Shown one piece after another: positions 44,488-63,633 of a DNA stretch of 64,000 nucleotides. How positions within the stretch are numbered: the stretch's first letter is position 1; each line of letters starts with the position of its first letter. Source of the DNA: Alphaproteobacteria bacterium. GTDB lineage: Bacteria; Pseudomonadota; Alphaproteobacteria; MPNO01. The notes beneath the pieces are model-generated. The model was not told the DNA's origin and ran no database searches. It saw nothing but the letters and a program-made list of their open reading frames with translations. The position numbers and the translations under genes were made by a program. The stretch spans positions 1,888,001 to 1,952,000 of the forward strand of contig CBDFLJ010000001.1 of the NCBI GenBank assembly GCA_965248835.1, in the 5' to 3' direction.

Positions 44488-44610
44488 CATTGGTCGACCG
44501 GTTCTCGAAAATCTGCCACAATTGTGTACCGCGAAATCCGTGTTCTCTGTGTTACGTGTTTCCCAATCTCCAAAGCGTTTGACCGAAAAACGGCAAAAAA
44601 GGAGCGCACC

Positions 44611-45672: not shown

Positions 45673-45688
45673 CGGTCGAGTCACCGAG

Positions 45689-45718
45689 GGGCGGGTGAAA
45701 CGCTGTCCTCACCCGCCC
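45689..45718 (+). terminator. 10-bp stem hairpin between dctP and dctQ
   Basis: GGGCGGGTGA-N10-TCACCCGCCC; no U-tract. Confidence 0.45.
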
Positions 45719-45729
45719 GGGTGCGATCG

Positions 45730-46263: not shown

Positions 46264-46290
46264 GCGGCCGGCAGGCCAGGTGGCACGGTC

Positions 46291-47727: not shown

Positions 47728-49179
47728 ATGAGCGACATAGCGTTTCAATCGGCCAAGCGGCTGGCCGGCCACATCCGCCGCCGAAAGATCGGTTGCCTGG
47801 AACTCTTGGACCACTATCTCGGGCGGGTCGAGCGCTTCAACCCGGTGCTCAACGCGATCGTCGAGACCTGTATCCCAGCCGCCCGGGAGCGGGCGCGCGC
47901 CGCTGACGCGGCACTCGCCAAGGGCGAGGTCTGGGGGCCGCTCCACGGCGTGCCCATGACGGTCAAGGATTCCTTCGACATCAAGGGTCTGCCGACGACC
48001 TGGGGCGTGCCGGCGCAGGCCGAAAACATCGCTCGGGCCGATGCCCTCTCGGTCGCTCGTTGGCGGGCAGCAGGGGTGGTGATCTTCGGCAAGACGAACG
48101 TGCCGATCTGGCTCGCCGATGCGCAGGCCTTCAACGCCATCTATGGCAGGACGTGCAGCCCGTGGGACCCCGACCGCACGCCTGGCGGTTCTTCCGGCGG
48201 TGCCTCGGCCGCGCTCGCCGCCGGCATGACCGGTATCGAGATGGGTAGCGACATCGCCGGGTCGATCCGCAACCCGGCGAACTACTGCGGCCTCTACGGC
48301 CTCAAACCGACGTTCGGGATCTGCCCCGCCGACGGGCACGCGCTTGCCGGCAACGTGGCGCCGCTCGACATCCTCGCGATCGGCCCTTTGGGGCGGAGCG
48401 CCGAGGATCTGGCGCTCGGGCTCGATGCCATCGCCGGACCCGATGAGATCGACGCGTCCGGATATCGGCTCGCGCTGCCGCGCGCGCCGAGGAAAAGGCT
48501 TAGCGAGTACAGGGTCGCCGTCATTGCGGACCATGCAACCGCGCCGGTCGAGCGCGCGATCTCCGAGCGGATCCGTCACCTGTCGGATTTCCTCGCGCGC
48601 GAAGGGGCCGACGTGAACGAAGGCGCGCGACCCGACATCGAGATGGAGGACATCCATCGCACCTTCGATATCCTGCTGCGCTCAGCCACGTCGGCGAAGC
48701 ATACTGACCTCGAGCGAGAGGCTGCCTTCGCGGATCTGGAGGCGCGGGGCCAGGACGATGACAGCAAATGGGCACGCATGCTGCGCGGCATGACGCTGTC
48801 TCACCGCGACTGGCTCAACCTCAACGAACAACGCCACCGGATGCGGCATAAGTGGCATGCCTTCTTTCGCGAATACGACCTGTTGCTGTGTCCGGTGAAC
48901 TGCACGGTGGCGTTCCCGCACATGACCGAACCGCCTTACGAACGGCAGATGACCATCGAGAACAAAGTCCATCCCTTCATGAACCAGATCTTCTGGACCG
49001 GCTTCACCGGCGTTGCACACCTGCCTTCGGTCGCTGCGCCGATCGGCTTCACGGAAGACGGCCTGCCGGTCGGCGTCCAGATCGTTGGCCCGCAATTCGG
49101 CGACCACACGTGTATCCAATTCGCGCGGATGTTGGAACGTGGCTACCAAGCCTTCGTCCCGCCGCCGGGTTTCGATTGA
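47728..49179 (+). CDS. Amidase signature family enzyme
   Basis: GPLHGVPMTVKD, TPGGSSGG and GSDIAGSIRNPANYCG. Confidence 0.92.
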   Translation: MSDIAFQSAKRLAGHIRRRKIGCLELLDHYLGRVERFNPVLNAIVETCIPAARERARAADAALAKGEVWGPLHGVPMTVKDSFDIKGLPTTWGVPAQAENIARADALSVARWRAAGVVIFGKTNVPIWLADAQAFNAIYGRTCSPWDPDRTPGGSSGGASAALAAGMTGIEMGSDIAGSIRNPANYCGLYGLKPTFGICPADGHALAGNVAPLDILAIGPLGRSAEDLALGLDAIAGPDEIDASGYRLALPRAPRKRLSEYRVAVIADHATAPVERAISERIRHLSDFLAREGADVNEGARPDIEMEDIHRTFDILLRSATSAKHTDLEREAAFADLEARGQDDDSKWARMLRGMTLSHRDWLNLNEQRHRMRHKWHAFFREYDLLLCPVNCTVAFPHMTEPPYERQMTIENKVHPFMNQIFWTGFTGVAHLPSVAAPIGFTEDGLPVGVQIVGPQFGDHTCIQFARMLERGYQAFVPPPGFD

Positions 49180-49288
49180 GGCGCTCGCCAGCGGACCAGA
49201 TCACCAAAGACGGATTGCGGCTGCGCGGTAAATCCTGTCTGACCCAAGTTCAACGTATCCATCCGGTGAGGCTTTCAATTACCTCTGA

Positions 49289-50188
49289 GAGTCCGTTTGA
49301 GAAAGGTCTCAATGGCTGCTTCTGCGGAGCAGGAGGCTCCCATGGCGACATGGATCATGGCTTCGCAGACATCGATGCGTTGTTCGTCGTCGCGAACCAG
49401 GCGGCGCCATCGGGTGAGCCAGCCGAAGCTGCGCTCCACGACCCAACGGCGCGGCACGAGTTTGAAGCCCGGCTCGTCGTCGAGGCGGCGCACGACCTCG
49501 ATGACGAAGTCGAGGAAGGCCGCCTTGTCCATCAGTTGGGTGCGGTCATAGGCGCCATCGGCGAACAGATGCTTGACCCGGGGCCAGCGCTTGCGGATGC
49601 CCTCCAGGATCAGTTGCGCCCCGGCGCTGTCGGAGATGTCCGCCGGCGTCAAGTTGACCATCAGCAGGCGGATATCGGTATCCACCGCCACGTGCCGCTT
49701 GCGTCCGACCGTCTTCTTGGCCGCGTCGTAGCCCCGCTTCGCCTTGGCCGCCTGCGCCTTGACCGTCTGGCTGTCGATGACCCCGGCGCTCGGGCCGGCC
49801 TTGCGGCCGGCGCGCTCCCGGTCGACCATCAGGGCGATGTCATGGATGGTGCGAAACAGCATCAGCCGCACGAAGCGGCGGAACCACCAATACACCGTCT
49901 GCCAGGGTGGGAAGTCCTTCGGCAGCATGCGCCAGCCGCCGCCCGTGCGCGTCATGTAGCGGATCGCGTTCGGCACCTCGCGCAGGTCCACGCTCGGCTT
50001 GCGGCCCCGCTGCGCCGGCTTCGTCAGCAGCGGCGCGATCCGCGCCCACTCCTCATCGGTGAGACCGCTCGGATAGCGCTTGGTCTTCCGCGCGACCGCG
50101 GCCATGCGGCCTCGCGTCTGCCGTGTCCACATGCACGGGGTGAATCACCAAACCGCACCGATCGGAACCCCCTTTCTCAAACGGTCTC
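49289..50188 (-). mobile_element. IS5 family (IS1031-group) element; transposase from 50132 with a C-terminal frameshift
   Basis: IRs GAGTCCGTTTGAGAAAG and CTTTCTCAAACGGTCTC; flanks TGA and TAA; WRMLPKDFPPW, IDSQTVK and RRWVVERSFGW. Confidence 0.88.
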
Positions 50189-50191
50189 TAA

Positions 50192-50460
50192 GATTGGCTC
50201 CAAGATTTATGTCGGTTAGGCGCGGCATGCCACGCGACATGATGAGATTTCCGGGCTGGGGATCGTTGGCGCGGGCGAGATAGCCGCCGAGCCTGGCGAT
50301 CTTGATGAGGTAGAGCGAGAGTGTCTTGGGGAGTGGCGGATCATGCTCATTCCCCGACACCGAGTGATCGAGGATCTTCGTCTCCATTTGGGTCAGCACA
50401 AGGCTGGGGTCGAGATCGGGCTCGACCCGATTAAGCATCGTCAACCAGAACACGCGGCAG
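50192..50460 (-). mobile_element. IS4 family (Tn5/IS50-like) transposase C-terminal fragment
   Basis: IKIARLGGYLARANDPQPG. Confidence 0.8.
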
Positions 50461-50461
50461 C

Positions 50462-52825
50462 TCAGGAATGGGGGCGCAGCGGGTGCGGCTCAGGCGGTGG
50501 CGAGCGGATCGCCCGCCAGATGCGCTCGGAGGTCACTGGCATGTCGAGGTGAGTGACGCCGTGGTCGCGAAGGGCATCGGCGATCGCCCCGACCACGGCG
50601 GCCGTTGCCGGAGTCGTTCCCGCCTCGCCCGCCCCCTTGACGCCGAGCGGGTTGCTCGGTGCCGCGAGGCCAACGGCCATGCACAAGAAGGCTGGCAAGT
50701 CGCTGGCCCTGGGCAGGCAATAATCCATGAATGAACCGCAGATCAGCTGCCCTGACCCAGCGTCATAGGCGCTCTGCTCGAACAGCGCCTGTCCTATGCC
50801 CTGAGCAATACCTCCATGGATCTGCCCCTCGACGATCATCGGGTTGATAACCCGGCCCACGTCGTCGACGGTAACGTATCGCAGGATTTGGAGGGTCCCG
50901 GTCTCGGGATCGATCTCGACCTCACAGGCCGCAACTCCGTTCGGGTGAGCATGGAGCCGGGTCGAGATTTGGTTTGTCGTTTGGAGCGGACTGGACAGGC
51001 CTTCGGGTGTGCTGCCTCGCTCGGTGGCTTCGGCGGCCTCGAACAGATCCACCGAGCGGTCTGTGCCGAGGACTGTGAACCGGCCATCCGAATAGCCGAT
51101 GTCGGAGACCGCCGCCTCCAGCAGATGGGCGGCGATCTCACGGCCGCGCTCGATGATGTCCTTGCAGGCCCGCAAGATCACGGTCCCGGCGAGGCGCATG
51201 GAGCGGTCGGCATGCGTGCCCCCGCCGGTTACTGCTTGGTCTGAATCGCCGAAGACGATCGAAACCCGTTCGATCGGTATCTCCAGCGTCGCCGACACGA
51301 CTTGAGCGAAAGTCGTCTCGTGCCCCTGACCGGAGGCTTGGGTGCCGATGACCGCTTCGACCCGGCTCTCCTCGGTGAGGATGCGGATGTCGGTTCTCTC
51401 GTTGGGTGCGCCGGCCGGGGATTCGAGATAGTTCGCGATCCCGATGCCTGCGAGCCGCCCACGGGCCGCCGCCTTAGCGCGCCGGTCGGCGAAACCGTGC
51501 CAATCGATCGCTCGCACCGCTGTGTCGAAATTCTTGGTGAATGCCCCGGATTCGTACAGAAGTCCGAGCGCCGACCGATAGGGCAGTAATGCCCCGGGAA
51601 TCAGGTTGCGCCGGCGCAGTTCGGTGCGGTCCATTCCGAACTCGGCGGCCGCGAGGTCGATCAGGCGTTCGAGCAAGTGGGTCACCTCCGGCCTGCCCGC
51701 GCCGCGAAAGACCGACACCGGGACGGTGTTGGTGAAAGCGCCGCGCACAGAAACGTGCATGGACGGGACGTCGTAGGCGGGGCCGGACATACGCAGCAGG
51801 TTCGCCAGCACCGCGAGCGTGACGGGATGCGCCCCGACATTGCCGAGATACTCGAACCGGGCGGCGAGAATCCGCCCCGTATCGTCAAGCGCGATCGCAC
51901 CCTCGCATAGGACGTCGCGTGCCTGATAGTCCGACAGAAATGCATCGCTCCGGCTCGCCGTCCACTTGACCGGGCGTCCGATCCGGCGGGCCGCCCACAA
52001 CAACAGCGGATATTCGGAGTTGCAGGCCGACCGAAGCCCGAAGCCGCCGCCGACGTCGCCGGTCACCACGCGAACCGCCTCGGGCCGCACACCGAGCGCC
52101 GTCGCCAGCGCGCTCTTATAACGATGGACGCCCTGGCTTGGCGCCTGCAATGTGTAGACGCCGCGCCCGGCATCGAAGGTGCCAATCGCCGCCCTCGGCT
52201 CGATCGGGCAGCCGTTGACCCGGTGGTTCAACAACCCGCAGCGGACGATCCGATAGGCGGACGCGAACATTGCATCGGTTGCGGCACCATCGCCGTTTTC
52301 GGCCATGACGCAGACATTGTCGCGGTCCCAGATCCGCGGCGCCGAGGCCATGACGGCAGCACGCACATCGGTGACGGCGGGCAAGGGAGCATAGTCGACC
52401 TTGACCCGTTCCAAGGCATCGAGCGCGAAGTCCGGGGTCTCGGCGACTGCGATCGCTACAATTTCACCGACGTGGCGAACCCGGTCCGGGGCGATCGGCA
52501 GGCCGGCCGGCAGAGGGGGCAGTTCTCCAGGCGTAAAGGACGGCTTGCTCGGATCGAGATGATCCGCGACGTTGGCGTAGTGCGTGAGAGCACCGAGCCC
52601 GTCGGCGACATATTCACGAGCCGTGAGCACGGTGAGAACGCCCGGCAACGAGGCCGCTTTCGCTGTATCGATCCGCGCGATGTCGGCATGGGCGTGGGGC
52701 GAGCGTAGAAAGCATGCGTAGGCCTGCCCGGCCTCGTTAAGGTCGTCGGTGAACCGGCCGGTTCCGGTGAGAAGCCGCCGGTCCTCCTTCCGCGCGATGC
52801 TCTCGCCGATCGCCGTGCCCGCCAT
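50462..52825 (-). CDS. Xanthine dehydrogenase family Mo subunit (form II CoxL-like)
   Basis: RKEDRRLLTG, RSPHAHA, DVGGGFG, FRGAGRPE, GQGHET and KGAGEAG. Confidence 0.9.
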   Translation of the reverse strand: MAGTAIGESIARKEDRRLLTGTGRFTDDLNEAGQAYACFLRSPHAHADIARIDTAKAASLPGVLTVLTAREYVADGLGALTHYANVADHLDPSKPSFTPGELPPLPAGLPIAPDRVRHVGEIVAIAVAETPDFALDALERVKVDYAPLPAVTDVRAAVMASAPRIWDRDNVCVMAENGDGAATDAMFASAYRIVRCGLLNHRVNGCPIEPRAAIGTFDAGRGVYTLQAPSQGVHRYKSALATALGVRPEAVRVVTGDVGGGFGLRSACNSEYPLLLWAARRIGRPVKWTASRSDAFLSDYQARDVLCEGAIALDDTGRILAARFEYLGNVGAHPVTLAVLANLLRMSGPAYDVPSMHVSVRGAFTNTVPVSVFRGAGRPEVTHLLERLIDLAAAEFGMDRTELRRRNLIPGALLPYRSALGLLYESGAFTKNFDTAVRAIDWHGFADRRAKAAARGRLAGIGIANYLESPAGAPNERTDIRILTEESRVEAVIGTQASGQGHETTFAQVVSATLEIPIERVSIVFGDSDQAVTGGGTHADRSMRLAGTVILRACKDIIERGREIAAHLLEAAVSDIGYSDGRFTVLGTDRSVDLFEAAEATERGSTPEGLSSPLQTTNQISTRLHAHPNGVAACEVEIDPETGTLQILRYVTVDDVGRVINPMIVEGQIHGGIAQGIGQALFEQSAYDAGSGQLICGSFMDYCLPRASDLPAFLCMAVGLAAPSNPLGVKGAGEAGTTPATAAVVGAIADALRDHGVTHLDMPVTSERIWRAIRSPPPEPHPLRPHS

Positions 52826-53114
52826 CTCGCCCTCCCCAAGACCCGCTATCGTCGGATCGATTGGGGAGTTTGGATGACATTGCGCCACCAGGCCAGCGCA
52901 TGATCGGTACACGCCCCGGGCGCTGGACCCGATTGGGGGGGCGGCGTTGTCGCAGAATGTGCGAAGCCGTGCGCAGGGCCGTCCGAATGGCCGCCGAGCC
53001 AATTGTCGTGGCCGCACGGAAGCGCATCGGTACACGCCGCGACCGCTTCGAACCCTAGGAATGCACCAGCGATTTCAAAACGCCGGCGATGACCCAACCT
53101 GAAAACCGAACGGT

Positions 53115-54659
53115 CTAGGCGCCGTCTTCGAAGCCGTATTCGGCCCAGCGGCTTTCGACCTTGTCGAGGTCTTCGCGGTGGGGCATGACGGTGGGCGGGT
53201 AGCGCTCGCCGTCGTAGCTCTCCTCGGGCTCGAAATCGAGATTGACGGTGGCATCGATGAGCACCCGGCACCACTTGCCGGTGCCATAGAGCATCGGGTC
53301 GCGATCCTTGAGCCGGGTCGAAGGGTCGAGCAGCGAGCCCCAGGAGCCGGGGAAAAAGACGATATCGTCCTCGGCCGCGTTGACCCGGTAGGCGAACGCC
53401 CAGTCGAGCGCGGCATAGTCGTGGATGTCGATGTCCTCGTCGACAACCCAGATGTGCTTGTAGCGCAGATGAGAGGCATTGGAGCCCCAGATCGCCGCGG
53501 CCGCTTGCTTTGCCTGGCCGCGATAGGTCTGGCGGAGTTGGATCATCAAGGTGGTGCCGTTATTGGCCGGCGCGCAGTGGACGTCCCGCACCCCGGGCAC
53601 GCCGGCGCGCTCGAGCACGTTCCAGGCCACGCCCGCGCGCTGCACCGAGCTGGTGATCGAGTTCTCGTTCAGCATCTTGGGCAGCGTGCCCTCCAGCGTG
53701 CCGCGGTGGATCGAGCCGTCGCGGTAGGTCACACATGTCACCTTGGTGACGTGCTTGGGCCCCTGGTCGCCGCCGAAATAGCCGGTGTACTCGCCGAACG
53801 GCCCCTCCTGCTCGAAGGTCGCGGGGTCGGGGTCGATGAAGCCTTCGATGACCATCTCGGCATCGGCCGGCACCATCAGGTCCGAGGTCTCGCACTTGAC
53901 CAGCGGCACCGGCGCGCCGCGCATCGCGCCCATGACTTCGTACTCCGAGACCCCGGTCGGAATCGGCGCCGAGGCGCAATACGGCATCACCGGCTCCCAG
54001 CCATAGACGTGGGCGACCGGCATCTTCTGGCCGCGGTCGGCCCATTTCTGAAAATGAACGCCCCAGTTCTGCGCCCGCCACAGCAGCACCGGCAGCGTGT
54101 CTTTCTGGCCCAGCATGCCGCGATAGATGCCGATATTGTGGACTCCGGTGTCGGGGTCCATGGTCACCGTGGCCTGGTAGGTGTTGATATAACGCCCGCC
54201 GTCCTCGCGGTGCCAGCGCGGCACCGGCACCTTGTAGATGTCGATGTCGGCGCCGGTGACGATGTTTTCCTTGACCTTGCCGTCCTTGACCGTCACCGGC
54301 GCGACCCGCTGCTGGAGGTAGTGGCGGGTCGCCAGCACCAGGTCGCGGATCGGCGCGTCCTTGGGCAGTCCCAGCATCATGGCCACGCGCGAATAGTTCG
54401 ACAGCCCGCCGGTGAAGACCGCGCGCGACCACACGTCGTCATCGGCCCCGTAGCCGGTGATGTTCTCGAACATCAGCGCCGGGCCGTGGCCCTCGCCGAA
54501 GGTCTTGCGCGCGATCGTGCCCAGCTCGCAGTTCCAATCGACCTCGGCGCCGATGCGGTGCAGCTCGCCCTCGATATCGAGCGCCTCGATCCAGCCGCGC
54601 AGATCGCCGAAGCTCCGCGGCTGCAGGCGGTTGGAGAGCCCTGCGGGTTGTTCACTCAC
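53115..54659 (-). CDS. UbiD family prFMN-dependent (de)carboxylase, copy 1
   Basis: GPALMFENI, DGGRYI, NIGIYR, EGPFGEYTGY, VVDEDIDI and LIDAT. Confidence 0.93.
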   Translation of the reverse strand: MSEQPAGLSNRLQPRSFGDLRGWIEALDIEGELHRIGAEVDWNCELGTIARKTFGEGHGPALMFENITGYGADDDVWSRAVFTGGLSNYSRVAMMLGLPKDAPIRDLVLATRHYLQQRVAPVTVKDGKVKENIVTGADIDIYKVPVPRWHREDGGRYINTYQATVTMDPDTGVHNIGIYRGMLGQKDTLPVLLWRAQNWGVHFQKWADRGQKMPVAHVYGWEPVMPYCASAPIPTGVSEYEVMGAMRGAPVPLVKCETSDLMVPADAEMVIEGFIDPDPATFEQEGPFGEYTGYFGGDQGPKHVTKVTCVTYRDGSIHRGTLEGTLPKMLNENSITSSVQRAGVAWNVLERAGVPGVRDVHCAPANNGTTLMIQLRQTYRGQAKQAAAAIWGSNASHLRYKHIWVVDEDIDIHDYAALDWAFAYRVNAAEDDIVFFPGSWGSLLDPSTRLKDRDPMLYGTGKWCRVLIDATVNLDFEPEESYDGERYPPTVMPHREDLDKVESRWAEYGFEDGA

Positions 54660-54668
54660 ATCCTGCTC

Positions 54669-56201
54669 CTATCTCAGATCGTCGAGGCCGAGCTCGGAGA
54701 AGCGCGCGCGTGCAGCCTCCTGATCCTCGGCCGAGGGCTCGACGGTCGGCGGGTAGCGCCTGCCGCCGCGGTCGGGCGGGTAGTCGAGGTTGATCGTCGC
54801 ATCGATCAGCACGCGGTGCCACTTGCCGGTGCCGAACAGATGGACGTCGGCATCGCGGCGGCGGACCGAGGGGTCGAGCCCCGCCCCCCAGGTCGCAGGG
54901 TAGATCACGATATCGCCCTCGCCCGCGTTGACCCGCCATGCGAGCGCCCAGTCGACGGCGGCATAGTCGTGAATGTCGATGTCCTCATCGACAACGATGA
55001 CATGCTTGTAGCGGACGTGCGAAGACGAATCGCCCCACAGCGCCGCCGCGGCCTGCTTGGCTTGGCCGCGATAGGTCTGGCGCATCTGGACGAGCATGTT
55101 GACTCCGGCGTGGATCGGCTGGCCGAAGACATCGGTGATGCCGGGGACGCCGGCCCGGTCGAGCGCGTTCCAGGCCGAGGCCGAGCGCTGGATCGAGCTC
55201 ATCACCGGGTTCTCGGCATAGCTGTAGGGAAGCGCGCCTTCGAGCGTCCCGCGGAAGATCGGCCGGTCCCGGTGGGTGATCGCGCTCACCCGCGTGGTGT
55301 GCTTCCTGGTCACCTCGGTCGCGTAGTAACCGGTGAACTCGGCATAGGGGCCTTCCTCGGCGAAAGTCTCGGGGTCGGACGAAATCCAGCCTTCGATGAC
55401 GATCTCCGCGGCGGCCGGGACCATGAGCGGCACCGTCTCGCAGGGCACCAGCTCGACCGGCGCGCCCCTGATCGCGCCCATCACGTCGTATTCGGAGATC
55501 TGGCGCGGCACCGGCGCGCCGGCGGTGAACCCCATCGAAGGCTCCCAGCCGATGACATAGGCAACCGGCATTTCCTCGCCGCGCTCGACATATTTGCTGA
55601 AATGCCCGCCCCAATGCTGGGCGCGCCACATCAGCACGGCAATGCGGTCGCGATCGACCACCATCCCGCGGTAGATCCCGACATTGTGCAGGTCGGTGTC
55701 GGGGTCCTTGGTCACGCAGCCGGCATAGGTCAGCACGTAGCGCCCGCCGTCGAGCCGGTTCCACCGGGGCACCGGGAGCTTCAGCAGATCGATGTCATCG
55801 CCGGTCAGGATGTTCTGCTTCACCGGTCCGGTGCCGACTACGACGGGCGCGATGCGCTCGGTAAAGATGGTCTTGCAGATCTTGACCAGTTCGCGCGCCG
55901 GGGTGTCCTGGGGCAGGCCGAACATCATCGCCAGCCTGGAATAGCTGCCCTGCCCGCCGACGAAGATCTCCCGGCATAGCGCGTCGGCGCCGTTGTAGTC
56001 CTTGATGTTGCTGAACAGCAGCGCCGGCCTGTCGCCCTTGCCCTGGACCATCCGGTAGATGGTGCCGAGCTCGACGTCCCAGTCGACCTCGCCGGTGATC
56101 TCCTTCAGCTCGCCCGCCTCGCGCAGAGCCTCGATCCAGCCCCGCATATCGCCATGGGCGACCGGCGTGCGCATCTCGGCAAGACCGCTTTTCACATCCA
56201 C
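54669..56201 (-). CDS. UbiD family prFMN-dependent (de)carboxylase, copy 2
   Basis: PALLFSNI, DGGRYV, NVGIYR, EGPYAEFTGY and LIDAT; start is GTG 56201 (GAGGT RBS) or ATG 56174. Confidence 0.92.
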   Translation of the reverse strand: MDVKSGLAEMRTPVAHGDMRGWIEALREAGELKEITGEVDWDVELGTIYRMVQGKGDRPALLFSNIKDYNGADALCREIFVGGQGSYSRLAMMFGLPQDTPARELVKICKTIFTERIAPVVVGTGPVKQNILTGDDIDLLKLPVPRWNRLDGGRYVLTYAGCVTKDPDTDLHNVGIYRGMVVDRDRIAVLMWRAQHWGGHFSKYVERGEEMPVAYVIGWEPSMGFTAGAPVPRQISEYDVMGAIRGAPVELVPCETVPLMVPAAAEIVIEGWISSDPETFAEEGPYAEFTGYYATEVTRKHTTRVSAITHRDRPIFRGTLEGALPYSYAENPVMSSIQRSASAWNALDRAGVPGITDVFGQPIHAGVNMLVQMRQTYRGQAKQAAAALWGDSSSHVRYKHVIVVDEDIDIHDYAAVDWALAWRVNAGEGDIVIYPATWGAGLDPSVRRRDADVHLFGTGKWHRVLIDATINLDYPPDRGGRRYPPTVEPSAEDQEAARARFSELGLDDLR

Positions 56202-56315
56202 AATCCAGACCTCATCCCCGTTGGCGGGCGTCGGCATGATAATCAGGCCGTCCGCGCCGTCCAGGGCGGCGGCGGTTGACACCGGCCGGCCCGGCGCGGA
56301 CCATCCGGGCCCGAG

Positions 56316-57635
56316 ATGAACGCCCAAAGCTATATCGACGACCGGCCCGCGGACGAGGTCTTTCGGGTCAGGCGCGCGGCATTCGTCGATCCGGACCTGT
56401 TCGAGGCCGAGATCGAGCGGATCTTTCATCGCACCTGGAATTATCTGTGCCACGAAAGTCAGCTCGCCCAACGCGGCGATTACCTCGCCACGGCGATCGG
56501 CCGACAGCCGGTGTTCGTGATCCGCGGGCTGGACGGGCAATTGCGCTGCTTCCACGACTCGTGTCCGCACCGCGGATCGATGCTGACGCGGGCGCGCGCC
56601 GGCTGCTCGCCGACCATCACCTGCCGCTATCACGGCTGGACGTTCAACGCCGACGGTAAATGTTTGCGGGTGCGCGGCCGCGACCGCAGCTACGAGGAAA
56701 GCGCGCTGGCGCGGCTGGGCACCGACCTCAAGCCGGTGGCGCGGACCGCGAGCTATCGCGGCTTCGTCTTCGCCAGCCTGGACGAAGGCGTCGCGGACCT
56801 TGAGCGGTTTCTCGGCGGGGCGCGGCCGTTCGTCGACCTGATGGCCGATCAGTCCGAACACGGCATGGAGGTGCTCAAGGGCGAGAGCCGCTATGTGATG
56901 CGGGCGAACTGGAAGCTGCAGACGGAGAACTCGACCGACGGCTATCACGTCGCGACCGTACACCGCAATTTCGCCCACACGGTCCGCCACCGCGAGGCGA
57001 TGACCGGCGAGGCGCACGATGGCCGGGCCAGGACCGAGGCGAGCCGGATCCTCGACCTGGAATCCATCCAATCGGGCGGCTACGACGTCGGCAACGGGCA
57101 CATGATCAACTGGTCGGACCGGGGCACGCCGGAAGCCGCGCCGCTGAACGAGGCCCGCGCTTCGCTGGTCGCCCGCTTCGGCGAAGGCAAGGCGCGCTGG
57201 ATGATCGACCGCGGCCGGACGGTGACGATCTTTCCCAATTTCTTCCTCAACGATGTGGCCTCGACCTGCATCCGGGTCTGGCGGCCGATCGAGGTCGGGC
57301 TCACCGAGATCGACACCTGGTGCCTGGCGCCGGTCGGCGAGAGCGCGCAGGCCCGCCGGGCGCGGATCCGCAAATACGAGGATTTCTTCCTGCCCTCGAG
57401 CCTCGCCGTGCCCGATGACGTGCGCGCGATGGAGGTCGCCCATGCCGGGGCCAAGGCGGCCGGCGGGGCGGCATGGAACGACCTGGCGCTCGGCAGGGCG
57501 ACGATGATCGCGGGTGCGGATGCGGCCGCGGCCGAGATCGGCGCAACCCCGCTGACCAGCAATCCGGGCCGCGAAAGCGAGACGCCGTTCTACGGCTTCT
57601 GGCGCGAATGGCAGCGCCGGCTGGATGCGCCGTGA
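56316..57635 (+). CDS. Rieske dioxygenase alpha subunit (BenA/AntA-like, divergent)
   Basis: CPH...CRYH, NWKLQTENSTDGYHVATVH and RIRKYEDFF...PDD. Confidence 0.88.
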   Translation: MNAQSYIDDRPADEVFRVRRAAFVDPDLFEAEIERIFHRTWNYLCHESQLAQRGDYLATAIGRQPVFVIRGLDGQLRCFHDSCPHRGSMLTRARAGCSPTITCRYHGWTFNADGKCLRVRGRDRSYEESALARLGTDLKPVARTASYRGFVFASLDEGVADLERFLGGARPFVDLMADQSEHGMEVLKGESRYVMRANWKLQTENSTDGYHVATVHRNFAHTVRHREAMTGEAHDGRARTEASRILDLESIQSGGYDVGNGHMINWSDRGTPEAAPLNEARASLVARFGEGKARWMIDRGRTVTIFPNFFLNDVASTCIRVWRPIEVGLTEIDTWCLAPVGESAQARRARIRKYEDFFLPSSLAVPDDVRAMEVAHAGAKAAGGAAWNDLALGRATMIAGADAAAAEIGATPLTSNPGRESETPFYGFWREWQRRLDAP

Positions 57636-58132
57636 GCGGCTTCGATCCGGCGCTGACCGCCGAGGTTGCGGATTTGCTGTACCGCGAGGCCTTTCACCTC
57701 GACCGCCGCGAATGGGACCGCTGGCTGGCGCTGTATGCCGAGGACGCTCTGTTCTGGGCCCCCGCGCTTGCCGGCGATGAGGGGTTCACCACAGATCCGG
57801 ACAACGAGATCAGCCTGATCCATCTCGACCGCACGGGGCTTCAGGCGCGCGTCTTTCGCATCGAATCCGGGGACTCGTATGCCAACATGCCCTTGCCGAT
57901 GACCGCGCACCTGATCACCAATGTCCGGGTCGTGGACGCCGGCAAGGCGCGGATCGAGGCGGCCGCGTGCTGGCTGGTAACGAGCTTCCGGCGGATCGAG
58001 CCGCCGATCACCCGCGCCGGGCTCTACGACCACACCCTGAGGCGCGGCGCGGCAGGCCTGGAGATCGTCAAAAAGACCGTGCGCATCCTCGATGACCGCA
58101 TCGTCGGGCCGATCGATATCTTCAACATATGA
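57632..58132 (+). CDS. Rieske dioxygenase beta subunit (BenB-like)
   Basis: LLYREAFHLDRREWDRWL, EISLI and HLITNV; GTGA overlap. Confidence 0.88.
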   Translation: MSGFDPALTAEVADLLYREAFHLDRREWDRWLALYAEDALFWAPALAGDEGFTTDPDNEISLIHLDRTGLQARVFRIESGDSYANMPLPMTAHLITNVRVVDAGKARIEAAACWLVTSFRRIEPPITRAGLYDHTLRRGAAGLEIVKKTVRILDDRIVGPIDIFNI

Positions 58133-58144
58133 GGCCCGGAAGAA

Positions 58145-59260
58145 ATGCCGCCTGCACCCCCGTTTCGCGCCGAGCATATCGGAAGCCTGCTGCGTCCGGC
58201 CGAGCTGCTGGCCGCACGCGCCGGTTTCGATGCCGGCGAGATCGATGAAACCGCGCTGACCGCGATAGAGGACGCGGCGATCCGCGATGCCGTGGCATTG
58301 CAGGAATCCGTCGGTCTGCAGGTGATCACCGACGGAGAGTTCCGCCGAGGCACCTATTCGGACAATTTCACGACATCGGGGATCGGCGGGGTGGTGGCGG
58401 AATTCACCGGCGGCGGGCGGTGGGCCTATACCGACCGCCACGGCCACAGGACGCCGGCGCGCGTCCCCCGCGTGGTCGACCGGCTGCGCTGGAAGGGTGC
58501 GGCCAACCGCGCGCCGTTCGACTTTCTCGCCGGGCTTACCGAGCGGACGATCAAGCTCACCCTGCCCGGGCCGTGCTATATCCACTACCGCGCCGGACGC
58601 GAGAACATCAGCGCCGACGTCTACCCCGACCTCGACGATTTCTGGTCCGACCTCGTGGCCTGCTATGCCAGCGAGCTCGAGGCGCTGGCCGCGGCGGGCT
58701 GCGGCTACGTCCAGCTCGACGAGACCGCGCTCGCCAAGCTCGGCGATCCCGGAATTCGCGATGGGCTGGCCGCGCGGGGCGATGACTGGCGGGATCTGCT
58801 CGACGTCTATATCGAGGCGATCAACGCGGTGGCTGCGGCTGCGCCTGCCGGCATGCGGCTCGCCATCCATCTGTGCCGCGGCAACAACCGGGGCCATTGG
58901 CAGGCCGAGGGCGGCTACGACGACATCGCCGAAGCCCTGTTCAAGCGGCTCGATATCGATCTGTATTTCCTGGAGTACGACAGCCCGCGCGCCGGCACGT
59001 TCGAGCCGCTCGCCGAGGTGCCCGAGGGCAAGTCGGTCGTGCTCGGCCTGGTCTCCACCAAGCTCGGCACGCTCGAGGACGAGGCGCTCCTGATCGGGCG
59101 GATCTTCGATGCCTCCTCGCACGTCCCGCTCGACCGCCTGGCGATCAGCCCGCAATGCGGCTTCGCCTCGGCCGCGGAAGGAAACGAGATCACCACCGCC
59201 GAGCAGGAAGCAAAGCTCCGCCGGGTGGTTGCCGTCGCCCAACGGGTATGGGACCGATGA
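58145..59260 (+). CDS. MetE C-terminal-domain-like Zn enzyme (YxjH-type)
   Basis: FRAEHIGSLLRP, ITDGEFRR, HLCRGN, FLEYD and PQCGFAS. Confidence 0.9.
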   Translation: MPPAPPFRAEHIGSLLRPAELLAARAGFDAGEIDETALTAIEDAAIRDAVALQESVGLQVITDGEFRRGTYSDNFTTSGIGGVVAEFTGGGRWAYTDRHGHRTPARVPRVVDRLRWKGAANRAPFDFLAGLTERTIKLTLPGPCYIHYRAGRENISADVYPDLDDFWSDLVACYASELEALAAAGCGYVQLDETALAKLGDPGIRDGLAARGDDWRDLLDVYIEAINAVAAAAPAGMRLAIHLCRGNNRGHWQAEGGYDDIAEALFKRLDIDLYFLEYDSPRAGTFEPLAEVPEGKSVVLGLVSTKLGTLEDEALLIGRIFDASSHVPLDRLAISPQCGFASAAEGNEITTAEQEAKLRRVVAVAQRVWDR

Positions 59261-59303
59261 TGCGCTGTGGAACGCGATAGGGACCGGAACGGGAGAGCAT
59301 GCG

Positions 59304-60506
59304 ATGAGCCTGAAGCTTGAGCCGCCGGCCTTGCCGGATACGCACTATCTCGACAACCGGATCTTCACCGACCCGACGATATTCGCGCAGGAACAGGCGG
59401 ACATTTTCGAGAAGGTCTGGCTGTTCGTCTGCCACGAGAGCGAGATCGCCAGTCCGGGGGATTTCCGCACCACTACGGTCGCCGGCAAGCCCGTCCTCAT
59501 CGTGCGCGGGGCGGATGGATCGGTCCGCGCCTTCTACAACGTCTGCCGGCACCGCGCGGCGCCGGTGGTGCGCGAAGACGCCGGCAACGCCACCGGGTTC
59601 CAGTGCTTCTACCACTTGTGGACCTACGGGCTCGACGGTGCCTGCACCGGCATCTCCAAGCCCGACGGCTATAAGGCGGTGAAGCTGGACCGCGCCAAGC
59701 TCGGGCTGATCCCGGTGCGCTGCGAGACGATCGCAGGGCTCGTCTTCGTCTGCCTGGGCGAGGACGCAGAGCCGCTCGCCGACTATATCGGCGAGATCAT
59801 CGAGCCGGTGCTGGAGCCGCTCTCGCGCAAGCCGCTGGAGGTTTTCCATTTTCACAAGGTGGAGCTGGCGGCGAACTGGAAGCTGTGGCAGGACAACAAC
59901 AGCGAGCGCTATCACAGCCTGCTGCATTTCATAAACCGCAAGACCCAGCCGTGGGTGACCGGAAAGTCGAGCCCGATGAAGCTCAACATCGGATCGAACG
60001 GGCACAGCGGCTACTGGTCCGATGGCCAGGCGAGGGTGCATTACGACGCCGGCGGTTACGCCGAGGCAACGACCGGCGTCCTGCCGGGCCTGCGCGAGAA
60101 CGAGATGCGGGTGATCAACCTGTTCCCCGACCTGATGATCAACATCCGCGCCAACGTCATCCGGGTGGACCGCATGGTGCCGCTGGCGCCGGGCCGCACC
60201 CTGGTCGAGTGGCGCGGCCTCGGCCTTGCGGATGTCCCCGAGCAGGTCGGCCGCGAACGGCTGCGCCATCACAACATGTTCTGGGGGCCGGCGGGGCGCA
60301 ATCTCGGCGAGGACGTCATTGCGGTGGAAGCCCAGTGGGCGTCCATGAACACCGACGTGGTCCGCTACAGCATCCTTGCCCGCGAGGAGGCGTTGAACCC
60401 GACCGACGATGCCAACCTGCGGGCCTATTACAAGGAATGGGGCCGCCGGATGGCGCGCAAGCCCAGCGCGGCCTTGGAGGACGAGACGCGGCGGACGCCG
60501 ACATGA
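59304..60506 (+). CDS. Rieske oxygenase alpha subunit, methanesulfonate monooxygenase MsmA-like
   Basis: PDTHYL, CRH-x17-CFYH, EVFHFHK, NWKLWQDNNSERYH..LHFINR, WGPAGRNLGED and EWGRRM. Confidence 0.78.
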   Translation: MSLKLEPPALPDTHYLDNRIFTDPTIFAQEQADIFEKVWLFVCHESEIASPGDFRTTTVAGKPVLIVRGADGSVRAFYNVCRHRAAPVVREDAGNATGFQCFYHLWTYGLDGACTGISKPDGYKAVKLDRAKLGLIPVRCETIAGLVFVCLGEDAEPLADYIGEIIEPVLEPLSRKPLEVFHFHKVELAANWKLWQDNNSERYHSLLHFINRKTQPWVTGKSSPMKLNIGSNGHSGYWSDGQARVHYDAGGYAEATTGVLPGLRENEMRVINLFPDLMINIRANVIRVDRMVPLAPGRTLVEWRGLGLADVPEQVGRERLRHHNMFWGPAGRNLGEDVIAVEAQWASMNTDVVRYSILAREEALNPTDDANLRAYYKEWGRRMARKPSAALEDETRRTPT

Positions 60507-60955
60507 CCGACAGGGACGCCGTGTTCGACCTCGTGCGGGCGACCGCGGCCAAGCTTGACGAAGAAGCGTTGGCCGACTGGCTGGCGCTGTTCGCGCCGCA
60601 GTCGGTATACGAAATCATCGCCTACGGGCCGGAGATCAAGGCGCAGATGTCGTGGTGGCACTCCAGCCGCGACGAGCTCGCGGCGATCCTGGAAGAAATC
60701 CCAGAGCACGTCCGCGACCCGGGAAAACGGCTGCATCTGGTGAGCCCGATATCGGCCGAGGTCGCCGGCGATCGCGCGGACGCGCTGTCGCACTTCGCGA
60801 TCATGCGGACCGGCCGGGACGGCAAGACCGCGGTCTATGCGGCGGGACGATACGAGGATCATCTGGTCAGGCCGAACCGCCGCTGGCTCTATGAGCGCCA
60901 CCGGGTGGTGCTGGATACGCGCATATTGGAGCCGTTCACGCACCTGCCGCTTTGA
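60503..60955 (+). CDS. Oxygenase beta subunit, MsmB-like
   Basis: ATGA overlap; WLALF...YEIIAYGPEIK.QMSW, GRYED and VVLDTR.L..THLPL. Confidence 0.75.
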   Translation: MTDRDAVFDLVRATAAKLDEEALADWLALFAPQSVYEIIAYGPEIKAQMSWWHSSRDELAAILEEIPEHVRDPGKRLHLVSPISAEVAGDRADALSHFAIMRTGRDGKTAVYAAGRYEDHLVRPNRRWLYERHRVVLDTRILEPFTHLPL

Positions 60956-61008
60956 GGTCCCGGCGCGCGGTCCATAGGCGTGACCGGTCGACGAACGTCC
61001 CTTTGGTC

Positions 61009-61410
61009 TCAGCCGATCATCTGATTGGGCAGGAACAGTGCGATCTGCGGCACCAGGACCAGGATGATCATGCACACCAGCATGGCCGCTCAGAACGGCA
61101 GGATGCCGATGAAGATCTCGCGCATCGGCACATCCTCGGCGATTCCCTGGGCCACCGGCCCCTTGCCGAGCGCGCCGCCGGGATAGATCCTCACCGTAAG
61201 CGAGCCCTTCGACAGTTTGGCGATCTCCTCCGACCAGGGCCGCATGATGAAGCGGTCCATCGGGCGCTTCGGCGACATGAAGTGGGCGAGCTTCAACTCG
61301 ACGGCGTCGGCGGGGATCGGGGCGGCGGCGAAGGCTGCCGTCATGCCGGCCAGCGCAATCGCGCCGATCGCCCGAAGCGGCCGCAGGGTCTGTTAATTCG
61401 CCCTCGTCGT
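61009..61410 (-). pseudogene. Collapsed TRAP operon: DctP N-terminus fused to DctM C-terminus
   Basis: ELKLAHFMSP...IYPGGALGKGP joined at about 61148 to GIAEDVPMREIFIGILPF*...PQIALFLP; start is ACG; in-frame TAA and TGA. Confidence 0.8.
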
Positions 61411-61550
61411 TAGGTTCTCCCGATTTTTCTCTTGAGTGTGCCCCAACGGGGCCGCGGCCCGGCGAAAAGGTCTACGACTGGCCGACGCGTGGCGCGAAAC
61501 CCACCGGGGCGCAACCCGATTGTCTTTTCCGGCCGCCGGCGCTCGACCGT

Positions 61551-62348
61551 TCAGTAGACGCCGCCGGGCGGCTTGGCGGCGATGGCTGGGTCCTCGCGCA
61601 TGTCGGCGACAATCCTGGTGCCGGCCGAGACCATAAGCCGATTGTCGTTCATCACCGTAACCAGATCGAAGCCCTGGGCGATCATCCGCTTGGCGTAAGC
61701 CGGATCGTTGGTCTGGATACCGGTGCGCTTTGCGTGCCGCTTGGCCGCCGCGAGGATTGCCTCGATGGCCTCAACCACCTTGGGCTCGGTCTGGTCAAGC
61801 CCTGGGCGGCCGCCCAGCGACAGCGACAGGTCCGAGGGGCCGATATAGACCGCATCGATCTCGTCCACCGCCAGGATCGCATCGAGGTTCTCCAGCGCCT
61901 GGGTGGTCTCGATCATCGCAAACGACAGCACCGTGTCGTCGGCATAGTCCATGTAGTCCGGCCCGGCATAGAGGCTCGCCCGCACCGGACCCGAACTGCG
62001 GTAGCCGCGCGGCGGATAGCGGCAGGCGCCGGCGAAGCGCCGCGCCTCCTCGGCGGTGTTGACCAGCGGGCAGATGATGCCGTAGGCGCCGGCATCGAGC
62101 ATCTTCATCACGGAGGCCGGGTCGTTCCACGGCACCCGCGCCATCGGCGCCGAGGCGGTCGTCGAGATCGCCTGGAACATGCCGACCGCGGTCTGGTAGT
62201 CGATCACCCCATGCTGCATGTCGACGGTGATCGAATCCCAGCCCAGGCTCGCCATGATTTCCGCCGAAAAAGCGCTGGGTATCGCGCACCAGCCGTTCAG
62301 CACCGCCTTGTTTTCGCTCCACAGCGCGCGGATCGGGTTTGCTCGCAT
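61551..62348 (-). CDS. HpcH/HpaI aldolase family protein
   Basis: VDMQHG, ARVPWN, LDAGAYG, RYPPRGYRS, AMIET and YIGPSDLS. Confidence 0.92.
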   Translation of the reverse strand: MRANPIRALWSENKAVLNGWCAIPSAFSAEIMASLGWDSITVDMQHGVIDYQTAVGMFQAISTTASAPMARVPWNDPASVMKMLDAGAYGIICPLVNTAEEARRFAGACRYPPRGYRSSGPVRASLYAGPDYMDYADDTVLSFAMIETTQALENLDAILAVDEIDAVYIGPSDLSLSLGGRPGLDQTEPKVVEAIEAILAAAKRHAKRTGIQTNDPAYAKRMIAQGFDLVTVMNDNRLMVSAGTRIVADMREDPAIAAKPPGGVY

Positions 62349-62361
62349 GTTGTTTTCCTCT

Positions 62362-63633
62362 CTAGGACGCCACGCGCGCGCCGATGTCGCGCCGACAGAA
62401 CCCGTCTTTCCAGTCGATGGCATCGACCGCCTCATAGGCGCGCACGCGCGCGGCGGCGAAATCGGCCGCCACCGCGGTGATCCCCAGCACCCGTCCGCCG
62501 GACGCCCGCACCGTCCCGTCCGGACCCGCCTCGGTGCCGGCATGGAAGACGTTCACGCCTTCGACGGCGGCGGCCCGGTCGAGCCCGCCGATCGCGCCGC
62601 CCTTGGCATAGGCGCCGGGATAGCCTTTCGATGCCATCACCACCGTGAGCGCCGCATCGTCCAGCCAGCGGAGGTCGAAGAAATCGAGCACCCCGTCGGC
62701 GGCGGCGACCAGCGCGGGCAAAATATCCGAGGCGAGCCGTGCCATCAGCACCTGGCATTCGGGATCGCCGAAGCGGACATTGTATTCCAGCAGGCTCGGC
62801 TCGCCGTCGGCGATCATCAGCCCGGCATAAAGCACGCCCTTGAACGGCGCGCCGGCCGCGGCCATCGCCGCGACCGTGGGCGTGATGATCCGGGTCATGA
62901 CCTTTTCCGCGACCGCCTCGGTGATCACCGGCGCCGGCGAATAGGCGCCCATGCCGCCGGTATTGGGTCCGGTATCCCCGTCCCCGACCCGCTTGTGGTC
63001 CTGGGCGGCGGCCAGCGGCAGGGCGGTCTTGCCGTCGACCAGGGCGAAGAAGCTCGCCTCCTCGCCGCGCAGGAAGTCCTCGATGAGAATCTCCGCCCCA
63101 GCCGCTCCGAACCGCCCTTCGGTGAGCATCGCGTCCACCGCATCCTCGGCCTCGGCGGCCGTCCCGGCGATCACCACGCCCTTTCCGGCGGCAAGCCCGT
63201 CGGCCTTGACCACGATCGGCGGACGCATGTCTTGCAGATAAGCCTTGGCCGGCGCCGCCTCGGTGAACCGCGCAAACGCTGCCGTCGGGATGTCGTGGAC
63301 CCTGCAGAGCTCCTTGGTGAAGGCCTTCGAGCCCTCCAGCGCCGCCGCCGCCGCACTCGGCCCGAAGGCCTTGATGCCGGCATCTTCCAGGCGGTCGACA
63401 AGACCCGCCACCAGAGGCGCCTCCGGCCCGACGACCACCAGATTGACGTCTTGCCCGACGGCGAGCCGGACCTGGCCGTCGATGTCCTCGGCCGCGACCG
63501 GAACGCAGGTTGCGACCTCGGCGATGCCGGCATTGCCCGGCGCGCAGAACAGCGCATCGACCAGCGGCGAGGCCGCGATCGCCCAGCACAGCGCATGCTC
63601 GCGCCCGCCGCCGCCCACGACCAACACCCGCAT
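62362..63633 (-). CDS. purD: Phosphoribosylamine--glycine ligase
   Basis: GGGGREHAL, APGNAG, KADGLAAGKGV, QDHKR, GPNTGGMGAYSP and RFGDPE. Confidence 0.98.
   Translation of the reverse strand: MRVLVVGGGGREHALCWAIAASPLVDALFCAPGNAGIAEVATCVPVAAEDIDGQVRLAVGQDVNLVVVGPEAPLVAGLVDRLEDAGIKAFGPSAAAAALEGSKAFTKELCRVHDIPTAAFARFTEAAPAKAYLQDMRPPIVVKADGLAAGKGVVIAGTAAEAEDAVDAMLTEGRFGAAGAEILIEDFLRGEEASFFALVDGKTALPLAAAQDHKRVGDGDTGPNTGGMGAYSPAPVITEAVAEKVMTRIITPTVAAMAAAGAPFKGVLYAGLMIADGEPSLLEYNVRFGDPECQVLMARLASDILPALVAAADGVLDFFDLRWLDDAALTVVMASKGYPGAYAKGGAIGGLDRAAAVEGVNVFHAGTEAGPDGTVRASGGRVLGITAVAADFAAARVRAYEAVDAIDWKDGFCRRDIGARVAS

Follow-up and report, generated by a model that had tools for sequence, protein, structure and literature searches.

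Introduction

Decarboxylases of the UbiD family, Rieske oxygenases and short MetE proteins are each known from described systems, and genes of all three kinds stand together in a 64,000-nucleotide stretch of an alphaproteobacterial genome (assembly GCA_965248835.1, contig CBDFLJ010000001.1, positions 1,888,001 to 1,952,000; hereafter the window). Between positions 53,115 and 60,955 of the window, two UbiD paralogs (UbiD1 and UbiD2) face a run of five genes encoding a first Rieske oxygenase (A1B1), a short MetE-like protein and a second Rieske oxygenase (A2B2). The closest UbiD enzyme of solved structure is PhdA of Mycolicibacterium fortuitum (PDB code: 7PDA), a decarboxylase of phenazine-1-carboxylic acid that depends on prenylated flavin mononucleotide (prFMN); it has a conserved Arg159 and a catalytic Glu269 according to PMC10850782. 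The three-domain layout, the arginine and the catalytic glutamate are common to PhdA, UbiD1 and UbiD2, but PhdA is distant, scoring 231-239 bits as against about 600 bits between the two paralogs of the window. PhdA is the product of a single gene and forms a homohexamer, whereas the window has a conserved tandem of two paralogs with no phenazine genes nearby.

Matched along their whole length, A1 and B1 score best on the models for BenA/BenB and AntA/AntB, at about half of the equivalog cut-offs, and share with BenAB and AntAB the alpha-beta gene order with a stop/start overlap. The benzoate dioxygenase operon also has the BenC reductase and BenD, neither of which is present at the A1B1 locus, and ben and ant operons are not known to be paired with UbiD decarboxylases. 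A2B2 is like TphA2A3, an alpha-beta Rieske oxygenase acting on an aryl carboxylate, in subunit type; the similarity is low, and in contrast to the terephthalate system neither a TphB dehydrogenase nor a reductase lies near A2B2.

MesA-D and the YxjG/YxjH-type short MetE proteins (PDB code: 1YPX) have the same barrel without a folate-binding domain as the MetE-like protein of the window, together with an H-x-C motif and a C-terminal cysteine. MesD is a core MetE that needs oxygen and a partner, MesX, and its gene often lies near a flavin reductase gene (PMC7857596); the role of core-MetE homologs in aerobic marine bacteria has been called questionable (PMC12478193). Unlike these core methionine synthases, the MetE-like protein is encoded inside a Rieske oxygenase operon, has about 18 genomic paralogs, and has neither a MesX nor a corrinoid partner in view.

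A literature search found no described pathway with this combination of genes, in line with what a reading of the DNA from its sequence alone (the sequence-only reading) had supposed. Here, the locus is interpreted, with a probability of about 0.6, as a layered mosaic built around an old conserved core rather than as one dedicated seven-gene pathway. Its genes and their surroundings are as follows (aa, amino acids).

53115-54659, minus strand: UbiD1, 514 aa, second gene of the tandem, 9 bp after the UbiD2 stop
54669-56195 (GTG start, 508 aa) or 54669-56237 (ATG start, 522 aa), minus strand: UbiD2, first gene of the tandem
56196-56315, no strand: divergent intergenic region between UbiD2 and A1, with back-to-back promoter-like elements and a 20-nt imperfect inverted repeat
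56316-57635, plus strand: A1, Rieske oxygenase alpha subunit of the BenA/AntA class, 439 aa, divergent from UbiD2
57632-58132, plus strand: B1, Rieske oxygenase beta subunit, 166 aa, with a 4-bp GTGA overlap with A1
58145-59260, plus strand: short MetE-like gene, 371 aa, after a 12-bp gap behind B1
59304-60506, plus strand: A2, second Rieske oxygenase alpha subunit, 400 aa, after a 43-bp gap behind the MetE-like gene
60503-60955, plus strand: B2, beta partner of A2, 150 aa, with a 4-bp ATGA overlap with A2

All seven open reading frames (ORFs) have the codon pattern rich in third-position G and C (GC3) that is typical of real genes, in DNA of 66% G+C. The layout given by the sequence-only reading was accurate: the rightward run of alpha, beta, MetE-like, alpha and beta genes has the overlaps and gaps reported for it, and the divergent gap, put at about 115 bp, is 120 bp from the favoured GTG start of UbiD2 at 56195 (78 bp from the ATG at 56237). 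Its family assignments for the UbiD pair, the BenAB-like A1B1 and the MetE-like gene agree with Pfam and NCBIfam.

The UbiD Pair

UbiD1 and UbiD2 each contain the UbiD_N, UbiD and UbiD_C domains of Pfam, bearing out two intact leftward paralogs, and are 57% identical across 507 residues. They score 291.8 (UbiD1) and 296.6 bits on TIGR00148, above the cut-off of 244.85, and remain below every named equivalog cut-off of NCBIfam, including those for the UbiD of ubiquinone synthesis and the MqnL type: VdcC gives 264 and 288 against 650, the phenylphosphate carboxylase beta model 223 and 242 against 469 (the alpha model is likewise not reached), and PRK10922 about 171 against 788. PhdA is the best solved relative of both (E values of 2.1e-67 for UbiD1 and 1.3e-69 for UbiD2), and its Arg159 and Glu269 align in both proteins if a 6-residue numbering offset in chain 7PDA_A is assumed. 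Of 123 full-length proteins of the pair's family in the surveyed loci, 121 keep the EGPxxExxG[YFW] and NxGxYR motifs. Both UbiD1 and UbiD2 are apparently catalytic and of the prFMN type. The genome has a single UbiX-like gene, a 218-aa frame at C2:1889389-1889877 (C1 and C2 are contigs of this genome), which is not adjacent to the cluster and serves 38 UbiD-domain genes; the other Flavoprotein match, a 406-aa frame, is read as CoaBC from its size.

Conservation was surveyed in 80 loci retrieved with UbiD2 from one-genome-per-species contigs and in 78 genomes of the order to which the window belongs. UbiD2 orthologs of 70-94% identity are present in 69 of the 78 genomes, and in 40 of the 43 of high quality. 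The pair is found in four of the five families of the order, and only one family (0/5 genomes) is without any representative. The UbiD2-UbiD1 tandem is set between xseA-purD on one side and tadA, a C26 peptidase gene, rluB, rsmD and mutL on the other; such synteny with housekeeping genes fits old, vertical inheritance. In the other survey, a UbiD2-type gene of at least 60% identity occurs in 61 of the 80 loci and the tandem in 51.

Linkage of A1B1 to the UbiD Pair

A1 has the Rieske and Ring_hydroxyl_A domains of Pfam and a CPH-X17-CRYH Rieske motif, and both A1 and A2 carry the H-x3-4-H iron-site motif. It falls below the equivalog cut-offs for BenA (402.3 against 780.95 bits) and AntA (325.7 against 671.9); likewise, B1 matches Ring_hydroxyl_B of Pfam at 92.6 bits and BenB at 106.5 against a cut-off of 225.55.

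Orthologs of A1 number 37 in the 78 genomes of the order, at 62-100% identity (62-82% for orthologs beside the UbiD pair), and are set apart from the next paralogs, at most 50% identical. Thirty of the 37 are divergent to a UbiD2-type gene within 4 kb, and one (G011) lies beside a UbiD1-type gene; the other six are cut off by contig breaks (G064, G063, G057, G010, G055 and G069). Among the 31 resolved cases, none lies away from the UbiD pair. In the 80 loci, A1 stands divergently upstream within 5 kb in 24, with B1 also present in 22 of these, and A1 occurs in 19 of the 49 loci having more than 5 kb of upstream flank. The linkage is kept across three families of the order. A linkage of the A1B1 and UbiD arms beyond chance is thus supported, for this part of the gene set only.

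The divergent region contains a sigma-70-like site, TGGACG-16-TATCAT, on the minus strand at 56263..56236. It is the only such site in 52700-61700, but shuffled sequence gives a mean of 1.0, and the count is therefore not significant by itself. In an upstream alignment, nine sister-genus loci also show the TGTCAAC and GGACGG motifs, along with a -10-like hexamer (TAAGAT/TATCAT). The GTG start of UbiD2 is favoured because the promoter-like site overlaps the ATG at 56237 and is conserved in relatives, and because a GTG start aligns in the same nine loci. A 20-nt imperfect inverted repeat (56250-56269 / 56282-56301, 80% complementary, 12-nt spacer) spans both promoter-like -35 elements, and 56250-56301 is a possible operator with no regulator gene adjacent. 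Two terminator-like sites were found, both within A1, and none lies between genes of the plus-strand arm.

No reductase gene lies in the window; the three FNR-type reductase domains (NAD_binding_1) of the genome are at C2:907030, C1:1725101 and C1:1512023. One of the reductases, of the BenC type, adjoins a paralogous A2'B2'A1'B1' cluster on C2. This cluster (C2:901607-907400, locus L083) reads A2' (48%), B2', A1' (46%), B1' (47%), Zn-dependent dehydrogenase (Zn-ADH) and BenC-type reductase, and is the only other place in the genome with both oxygenase types together.

A Proposed Route

All substrates, the order of steps and co-expression of the genes are put forward here as a proposal. The core would consist of the two prFMN-type UbiDs divergent from the BenA/AntA-class A1B1, with an HpaI-type aldolase gene nearby; in relatives, the core island also holds an EamA transporter, a 293-aa protein and a cyclase/formamidase-family hydrolase. 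An imported (hetero)aryl carboxylic acid may undergo non-oxidative decarboxylation, ipso-dihydroxylation, ring cleavage, hydrolysis and aldol cleavage. The UbiDs would take one carboxyl group off a di- or poly-carboxylated, or a hydroxy- or amino-substituted, aryl acid by means of prFMN, and A1B1 would carry out 1,2-(ipso) dihydroxylation of the remaining aryl carboxylate. The prFMN would come from the single UbiX of the genome and the electrons from a BenC-type reductase, both encoded elsewhere, and in relatives the product may pass through the 293-aa protein, the cyclase/formamidase-family hydrolase and the HpaI-type aldolase. A cyclase-family formamidase together with an AntA-like oxygenase brings to mind the branch of tryptophan degradation that runs from kynurenine to anthranilate; this serves as a lead only.

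Two further layers would have been added to this core. The MetE-like protein is probably a zinc thiol-alkyltransferase for a substituted form of the substrate, from which it would remove, or to which it would add, a methyl or another alkyl group. A2B2 is probably a mobile two-gene oxygenase cassette that performs another oxygenation and widens or changes the substrate range.

The Short MetE-like Gene

Meth_synt_2 of Pfam spans residues 11-366 of the 371-residue MetE-like protein, and the folate-binding N-terminal domain is absent. The protein scores 334.6 bits on NF005085 (cut-off 313) and 53.6 on the full-length MetE model TIGR01371 (cut-off 929.95); in place of the two domains and about 750 aa of a full-length MetE, it has the catalytic barrel alone. 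Its best solved relative is 1YPX (1e-70), and a pattern search located H242-x-C244 and C338, candidates for the histidine and cysteines among the zinc and homocysteine ligands (His, Cys, Glu, Cys). A truncated MetE-like ORF of 259 aa, at 16635-17414 of the window, matches residues 134-369 of the full paralog only, at 43%.

In the family to which the genome belongs, the MetE-like gene lies directly behind B1 in two genomes, including this one, and in the same island in a third. The two closest orthologs, in G007 (63%) and G064 (62%), are both accompanied by A1B1 and by the HpcH-family aldolase gene (HpcH). Contig C119 of G007 has a partial UbiD2 divergent from A1-B1-MetE, which is convergent with HpcH, and this is the window order minus A2B2. 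The order in G064 is xseA, purD, a weak solute-binding-like ORF, EamA, HpcH, a 293-aa-type protein, MetE, cyclase, B1, A1 and contig end. The next orthologs, at most 61% identical and in nine loci, have no A1B1 within 1.5 kb on each side.

Paralogs of the gene are also found next to Rieske genes. In an operon at C1:1722250-1726450 (L147 5250-8450), a VanA-type Rieske gene is followed after a 12-bp gap by MetE' and then by an FNR-type reductase gene; downstream of these lie genes for a short-chain dehydrogenase/reductase (SDR), a PaaA/PaaC-like protein and MarR. Of 29 other ortholog loci, 12 keep MetE' behind the VanA-like gene, namely G009 (with VanA in two pieces) and 11 sister-genus genomes; the arrangement is absent from the 17 more distant ones, so that the conservation is among close kin, effectively two genera. 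A third operon (L148, C1:1509-1512 kb) has the order MetE'', a PF11723 Rieske hydroxylase gene, a reductase gene, and its MetE''-Rieske pairing is kept in 1 of 25 other loci, that of the same-genus G009.

Because MetE-like genes stand directly behind an oxygenase in two operon types, BenAB here and in G007 and VanA in 12 other genomes, one may ask whether in this family the short core MetE paralogs work together with Rieske oxygenases, within an undescribed route for methylated aromatic (di)carboxylates. The odds on this idea are rather long. If it holds, the alkyl group of a methylated aromatic acid would be captured on homocysteine or another thiol, or a methyl group would be received from the oxygenase. 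Such a system would be a counterpart of the unexplained MesD/MesX and, with the UbiD pair, a route feeding methionine or one-carbon metabolism.

A biosynthetic or salvage role in place of a catabolic one appears very improbable. Under this explanation, the MetE-like protein would be a methionine synthase of the MesD kind that takes its methyl group from a Rieske partner instead of methyl-folate, following the precedent of the oxygen-dependent core MetE that works with MesX and is often encoded near a flavin reductase (PMC7857596). The two paralogs in operon with a Rieske gene and an FNR-type reductase gene (L147 and L148) and the VanA-like-MetE' pair kept in 12 of 29 loci would suit it, and so would the lack of a match to MesX (PF08908, DUF1852) in this genome, although the same search matched in none of 14 control genomes either. 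About 18 MetE-like loci are, however, far above the needs of methionine synthesis. Moreover, the Rieske demethylases VanA and GbcA release formaldehyde and yield no transferable methyl group.

The A2B2 Oxygenase

A2 has the Rieske and Ring_hydroxyl_A domains of Pfam with a CRH-X17-CFYH Rieske motif, and B2 matches SnoaL_4 and Ring_hydroxyl_B and scores 56.2 on AndAd against a cut-off of 230. The best solved relative of A2 is the terephthalate dioxygenase TphA2 (PDB code: 7Q04; 1e-39, residues 20-337). The sequence-only reading had labelled A2B2 MsmAB-like. Proven MsmA, of methanesulfonate monooxygenase, has a CXH-X26-CXXH motif, and according to PMC4433239 proteins with X17 bear the name MsmA by automatic annotation only; with its 17-residue Rieske spacer, A2 is not MsmA-like. 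The cleavage of a C-S bond that had been deduced from the MsmAB label loses its support with the MsmA signature.

Orthologs of A2B2 are found in 4 of the 78 genomes of the order, all in another family, with 69-78% identity for alpha and 50-64% for beta, and the next relatives of A2 are at most 52% identical. In these four loci B2 always follows A2 and there are no common neighbours; none of the four has an A1, MetE-like or UbiD gene nearby. A2 occurs in none of the 80 loci, and across both surveys only this genome has A2B2 at the UbiD locus. A search for flanking repeats marking an insertion of A2B2 gave nothing convincing.

These distributions bear on the claim that the locus is one catabolic system. 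The tie between A1B1 and the UbiDs, at 31 of 37 orthologs and 24 of 80 loci, goes beyond chance, but the seven genes are not conserved together: no locus among the 80 related ones has the full order, nor does any of the A1, A2 and MetE neighbourhoods examined in genomes of the same order. It is consequently unlikely that all seven genes serve one dedicated system for a carboxylated and S- or N-substituted aromatic compound, combining decarboxylation, two oxygenations and a thiol or alkyl transfer. Such a system would explain the tight packing of the plus-strand arm, with its two 4-bp overlaps, its 12- and 43-bp gaps and no intergenic terminator-like site, as well as the placement of this arm across 120 bp from the UbiD pair, the joint occurrence of A1-type and A2-type oxygenases at C2:901607-905340 and the UbiD2 | A1-B1-MetE arrangement retained in G007. 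It would not explain why A2B2 orthologs lie in unrelated contexts, why the same-genus G009 and G008 are without A1 and A2 orthologs, or why A2 lacks the MsmA signature.

Genomic Background and Chance Adjacency

The 4.89-Mb genome contains 38 UbiD, 98 Rieske and 21 Meth_synt_2 matches (about 18 loci for the last) and 71 loci for the large subunit of molybdenum hydroxylases. Adjacency within the genome therefore proves little, and the argument rests on conservation across genomes. Three MetE-like loci lie within 1 kb of a Rieske domain, against about 1.2 of about 18 expected (Poisson p ~0.1). At one side locus, C1:623457-632200 (L084), Rieske beta and alpha genes and a UbiD gene are divergent from an A1-like alpha gene (48%, no beta gene), and the locus continues with a further UbiD gene, a MetE-like gene (Meth_synt_2, 131 bits), nitrile hydratase beta and alpha genes and EamA.

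Given these paralog numbers and the excess of p ~0.1, the juxtaposition could largely be fortuitous: the MetE-like gene and A2B2, and perhaps more, would have landed in a rearrangement-prone spot without a functional tie to the UbiDs. The gene content between HpcH and UbiD2, which differs among lineages, and the insertion sequence (IS) elements and synteny break that flank the locus point the same way. We nevertheless hold this to be quite improbable, as the A1B1-UbiD linkage is kept across three families, both closest MetE orthologs are linked to A1B1, and the overlapping stop and start codons suggest translational coupling.

History of the Locus

Three further features of the window lie next to the cluster.

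60990-61344, minus strand: deletion remnant of an operon for a tripartite ATP-independent periplasmic (TRAP) transporter, dctP 5' end fused to dctM 3' end
61551-62543, minus strand: HpaI/GarL-type class II aldolase of the HpcH family, a conserved neighbour of the cluster
50462-52825, minus strand: molybdenum hydroxylase large subunit, downstream of UbiD1, with an IS directly after it

The aldolase gene matches HpcH_HpaI at 105.8 bits and HpaI at 170.7 against a cut-off of 368.8. At an identity of at least 50% it occurs in 11 of the 80 loci, and it shares an island with the MetE-like gene in G007 and G064. In only 1 of the 80 loci is there a MetE-like gene of at least 40% identity, and it does not adjoin A1 there. 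The segment between HpcH and UbiD2 contains, depending on the lineage, TRAP genes, PhyH and a hydrolase, or the 293-aa protein and the cyclase. The 293-aa protein of relatives matched nothing in Pfam or NCBIfam, nor did a nine-sequence profile of it match PDB sequences (E up to 10), and its AlphaFold model is poor (predicted local distance difference test, pLDDT, 48.4). Neither the 293-aa gene nor the cyclase gene of the relatives is at the locus here; the best match elsewhere in this genome is at 62% (C1:757 kb) for the former and at 45% (C2) for the latter.

In the same-genus genome G009 (locus L004; UbiD2 94%), the closest complete relative, the order is purD, HpcH, dctP, dctQ, dctM, UbiD2, UbiD1 and tadA, with no A1, MetE or A2. 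Pfam identifies the ORFs of L004 as DctP, DctQ and DctM, and dctPQM there occupies the place that the entire plus-strand arm has in the window. The approximately 600 bp between B2 and HpcH are a leftover of the TRAP operon that is intact in G009. By blastn, window positions ~61450-61147 match L004 6978-7266 at 75% (dctP 5' end; 94% over 51 residues) and ~61148-60998 match L004 9731-9881 at 90% (dctM 3' end), and about 2.46 kb of the L004 operon between the matched ends are gone from the window. The position of the remnant places the five-gene arm between the old dctM end and the UbiD2 promoter. A1 is 82% and UbiD2 85% identical to the sister genus, and hence it is possible either that the arm was gained here or that it was lost in G009 and G008.

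Beyond the UbiD pair, the sequence ceases to resemble G009 exactly at the UbiD1 stop codon. The tadA-to-mutL block that adjoins UbiD1 in relatives is here on the other contig, at C2:199-204 kb, and its place is taken by the molybdenum hydroxylase gene (MoCoBD_1, MoCoBD_2 and Ald_Xan_dh_C of Pfam), a lone large subunit at the position of tadA in relatives. Beyond this gene lies an IS5-type element (49275-50453; transposase 49275-50132) with partial copies elsewhere in the genome. The molybdenum hydroxylase is probably an unrelated neighbour brought by the rearrangement. Further to the left, the window contains amidase-signature amidase genes (37060-38718 and 47728-49179), an AndAc-like Rieske alpha gene at 39408-40700 (454.5 bits against a cut-off of 750) with no adjacent beta gene identified, an IS1182/IS5-like transposase gene (41604-43082) and a TRAP dctPQM set (44524-47610).

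UbiD Genes Beside Molybdenum Hydroxylases

The hmf cluster for furoate and furandicarboxylate (FDCA) combines HmfF, a UbiD-type decarboxylase, with furoyl-CoA dehydrogenase, a ligase and a hydratase. Xanthobacter tagetidis is known for growth on thiophene-2-carboxylate, and at the loci of this species and a related strain (L052-L054) a single UbiD1-type gene (70%) adjoins an AMP-dependent ligase gene, near a molybdenum-hydroxylase large subunit gene (30-31% to that of the window) and three small ORFs. More generally, the neighbours of distant members of the pair's family (63-70%; L060-L079 and L052-L054) include a molybdenum-hydroxylase large subunit gene together with genes for an AMP-ligase, an enoyl-CoA hydratase and an alpha/beta hydrolase. 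In Cupriavidus sp. LA-1, the lumazine cluster has LuDH and a UbiD-type xanthine-8-carboxylate decarboxylase (PMC12391406). The hmf and lumazine clusters are both catabolic and join a UbiD enzyme with a molybdenum hydroxylase in the use of a heteroaromatic acid, whereas the window has only a large subunit gene of a molybdenum hydroxylase, on the far side of a synteny break. PhdA outscores the HmfF homolog 6H6V against the UbiDs of the window; HmfF of C. basilensis and the LA-1 enzyme were compared by description. The nearby molybdenum hydroxylase and amidases had brought the lumazine cluster into consideration, and it was set aside: the isomerase of that pathway is a 108-kDa alpha2beta2 protein with subunits of about 27 kDa each (PMC12391406), which are by inference different from the PF01425 amidases of the window, of about 50 kDa.

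Evidence Against the Interpretation and Significance

Several observations weigh against interpreting the locus as a mosaic around a working core. An A1 ortholog is missing from about half of the genomes in which the UbiD pair occurs, which means that the pair does not need A1B1, and in several relatives 3-4 kb with a histidine kinase gene and an LTXXQ protein gene separate A1 from UbiD2. Some adjacency is expected by chance in so paralog-rich a genome. All equivalog scores of the seven proteins are under the cut-offs, and the placing of the 293-aa protein among the VOC/glyoxalase proteins comes solely from language-model feature neighbours (Atlas). In addition, the locus is without a diol dehydrogenase, a ring-cleavage enzyme, a reductase and UbiX, and the local TRAP importer is deleted, so that in this genome the pathway may lack parts or be in decay.

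Each of the seven proteins is of a family that is well known, and the locus is not a new kind of system. What is new is the strict linkage of A1B1, the MetE layer, the addition of A2B2, the TRAP scar and the recurrence of MetE-like genes behind Rieske genes. Gene content, families, catalytic motifs, patterns of conservation and the scars of deletion and rearrangement can be read directly in the genomes compared, and they record the rebuilding of a cluster, in a transporter scar, an added oxygenase cassette and a synteny break. They also carry a warning that, where a genome has 38 UbiD and 98 Rieske genes, tightly packed genes need not form a single pathway. The MetE-like genes that recur behind Rieske genes offer a handle on the function of core MetE in aerobic bacteria and on the source of the alkyl group. 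The tandem UbiD is near-core in four of the five families of this marine and wastewater alphaproteobacterial order, and the UbiD pair with A1B1 provides a defined set of enzymes on which an apparently common route for aromatic acids can be tested.

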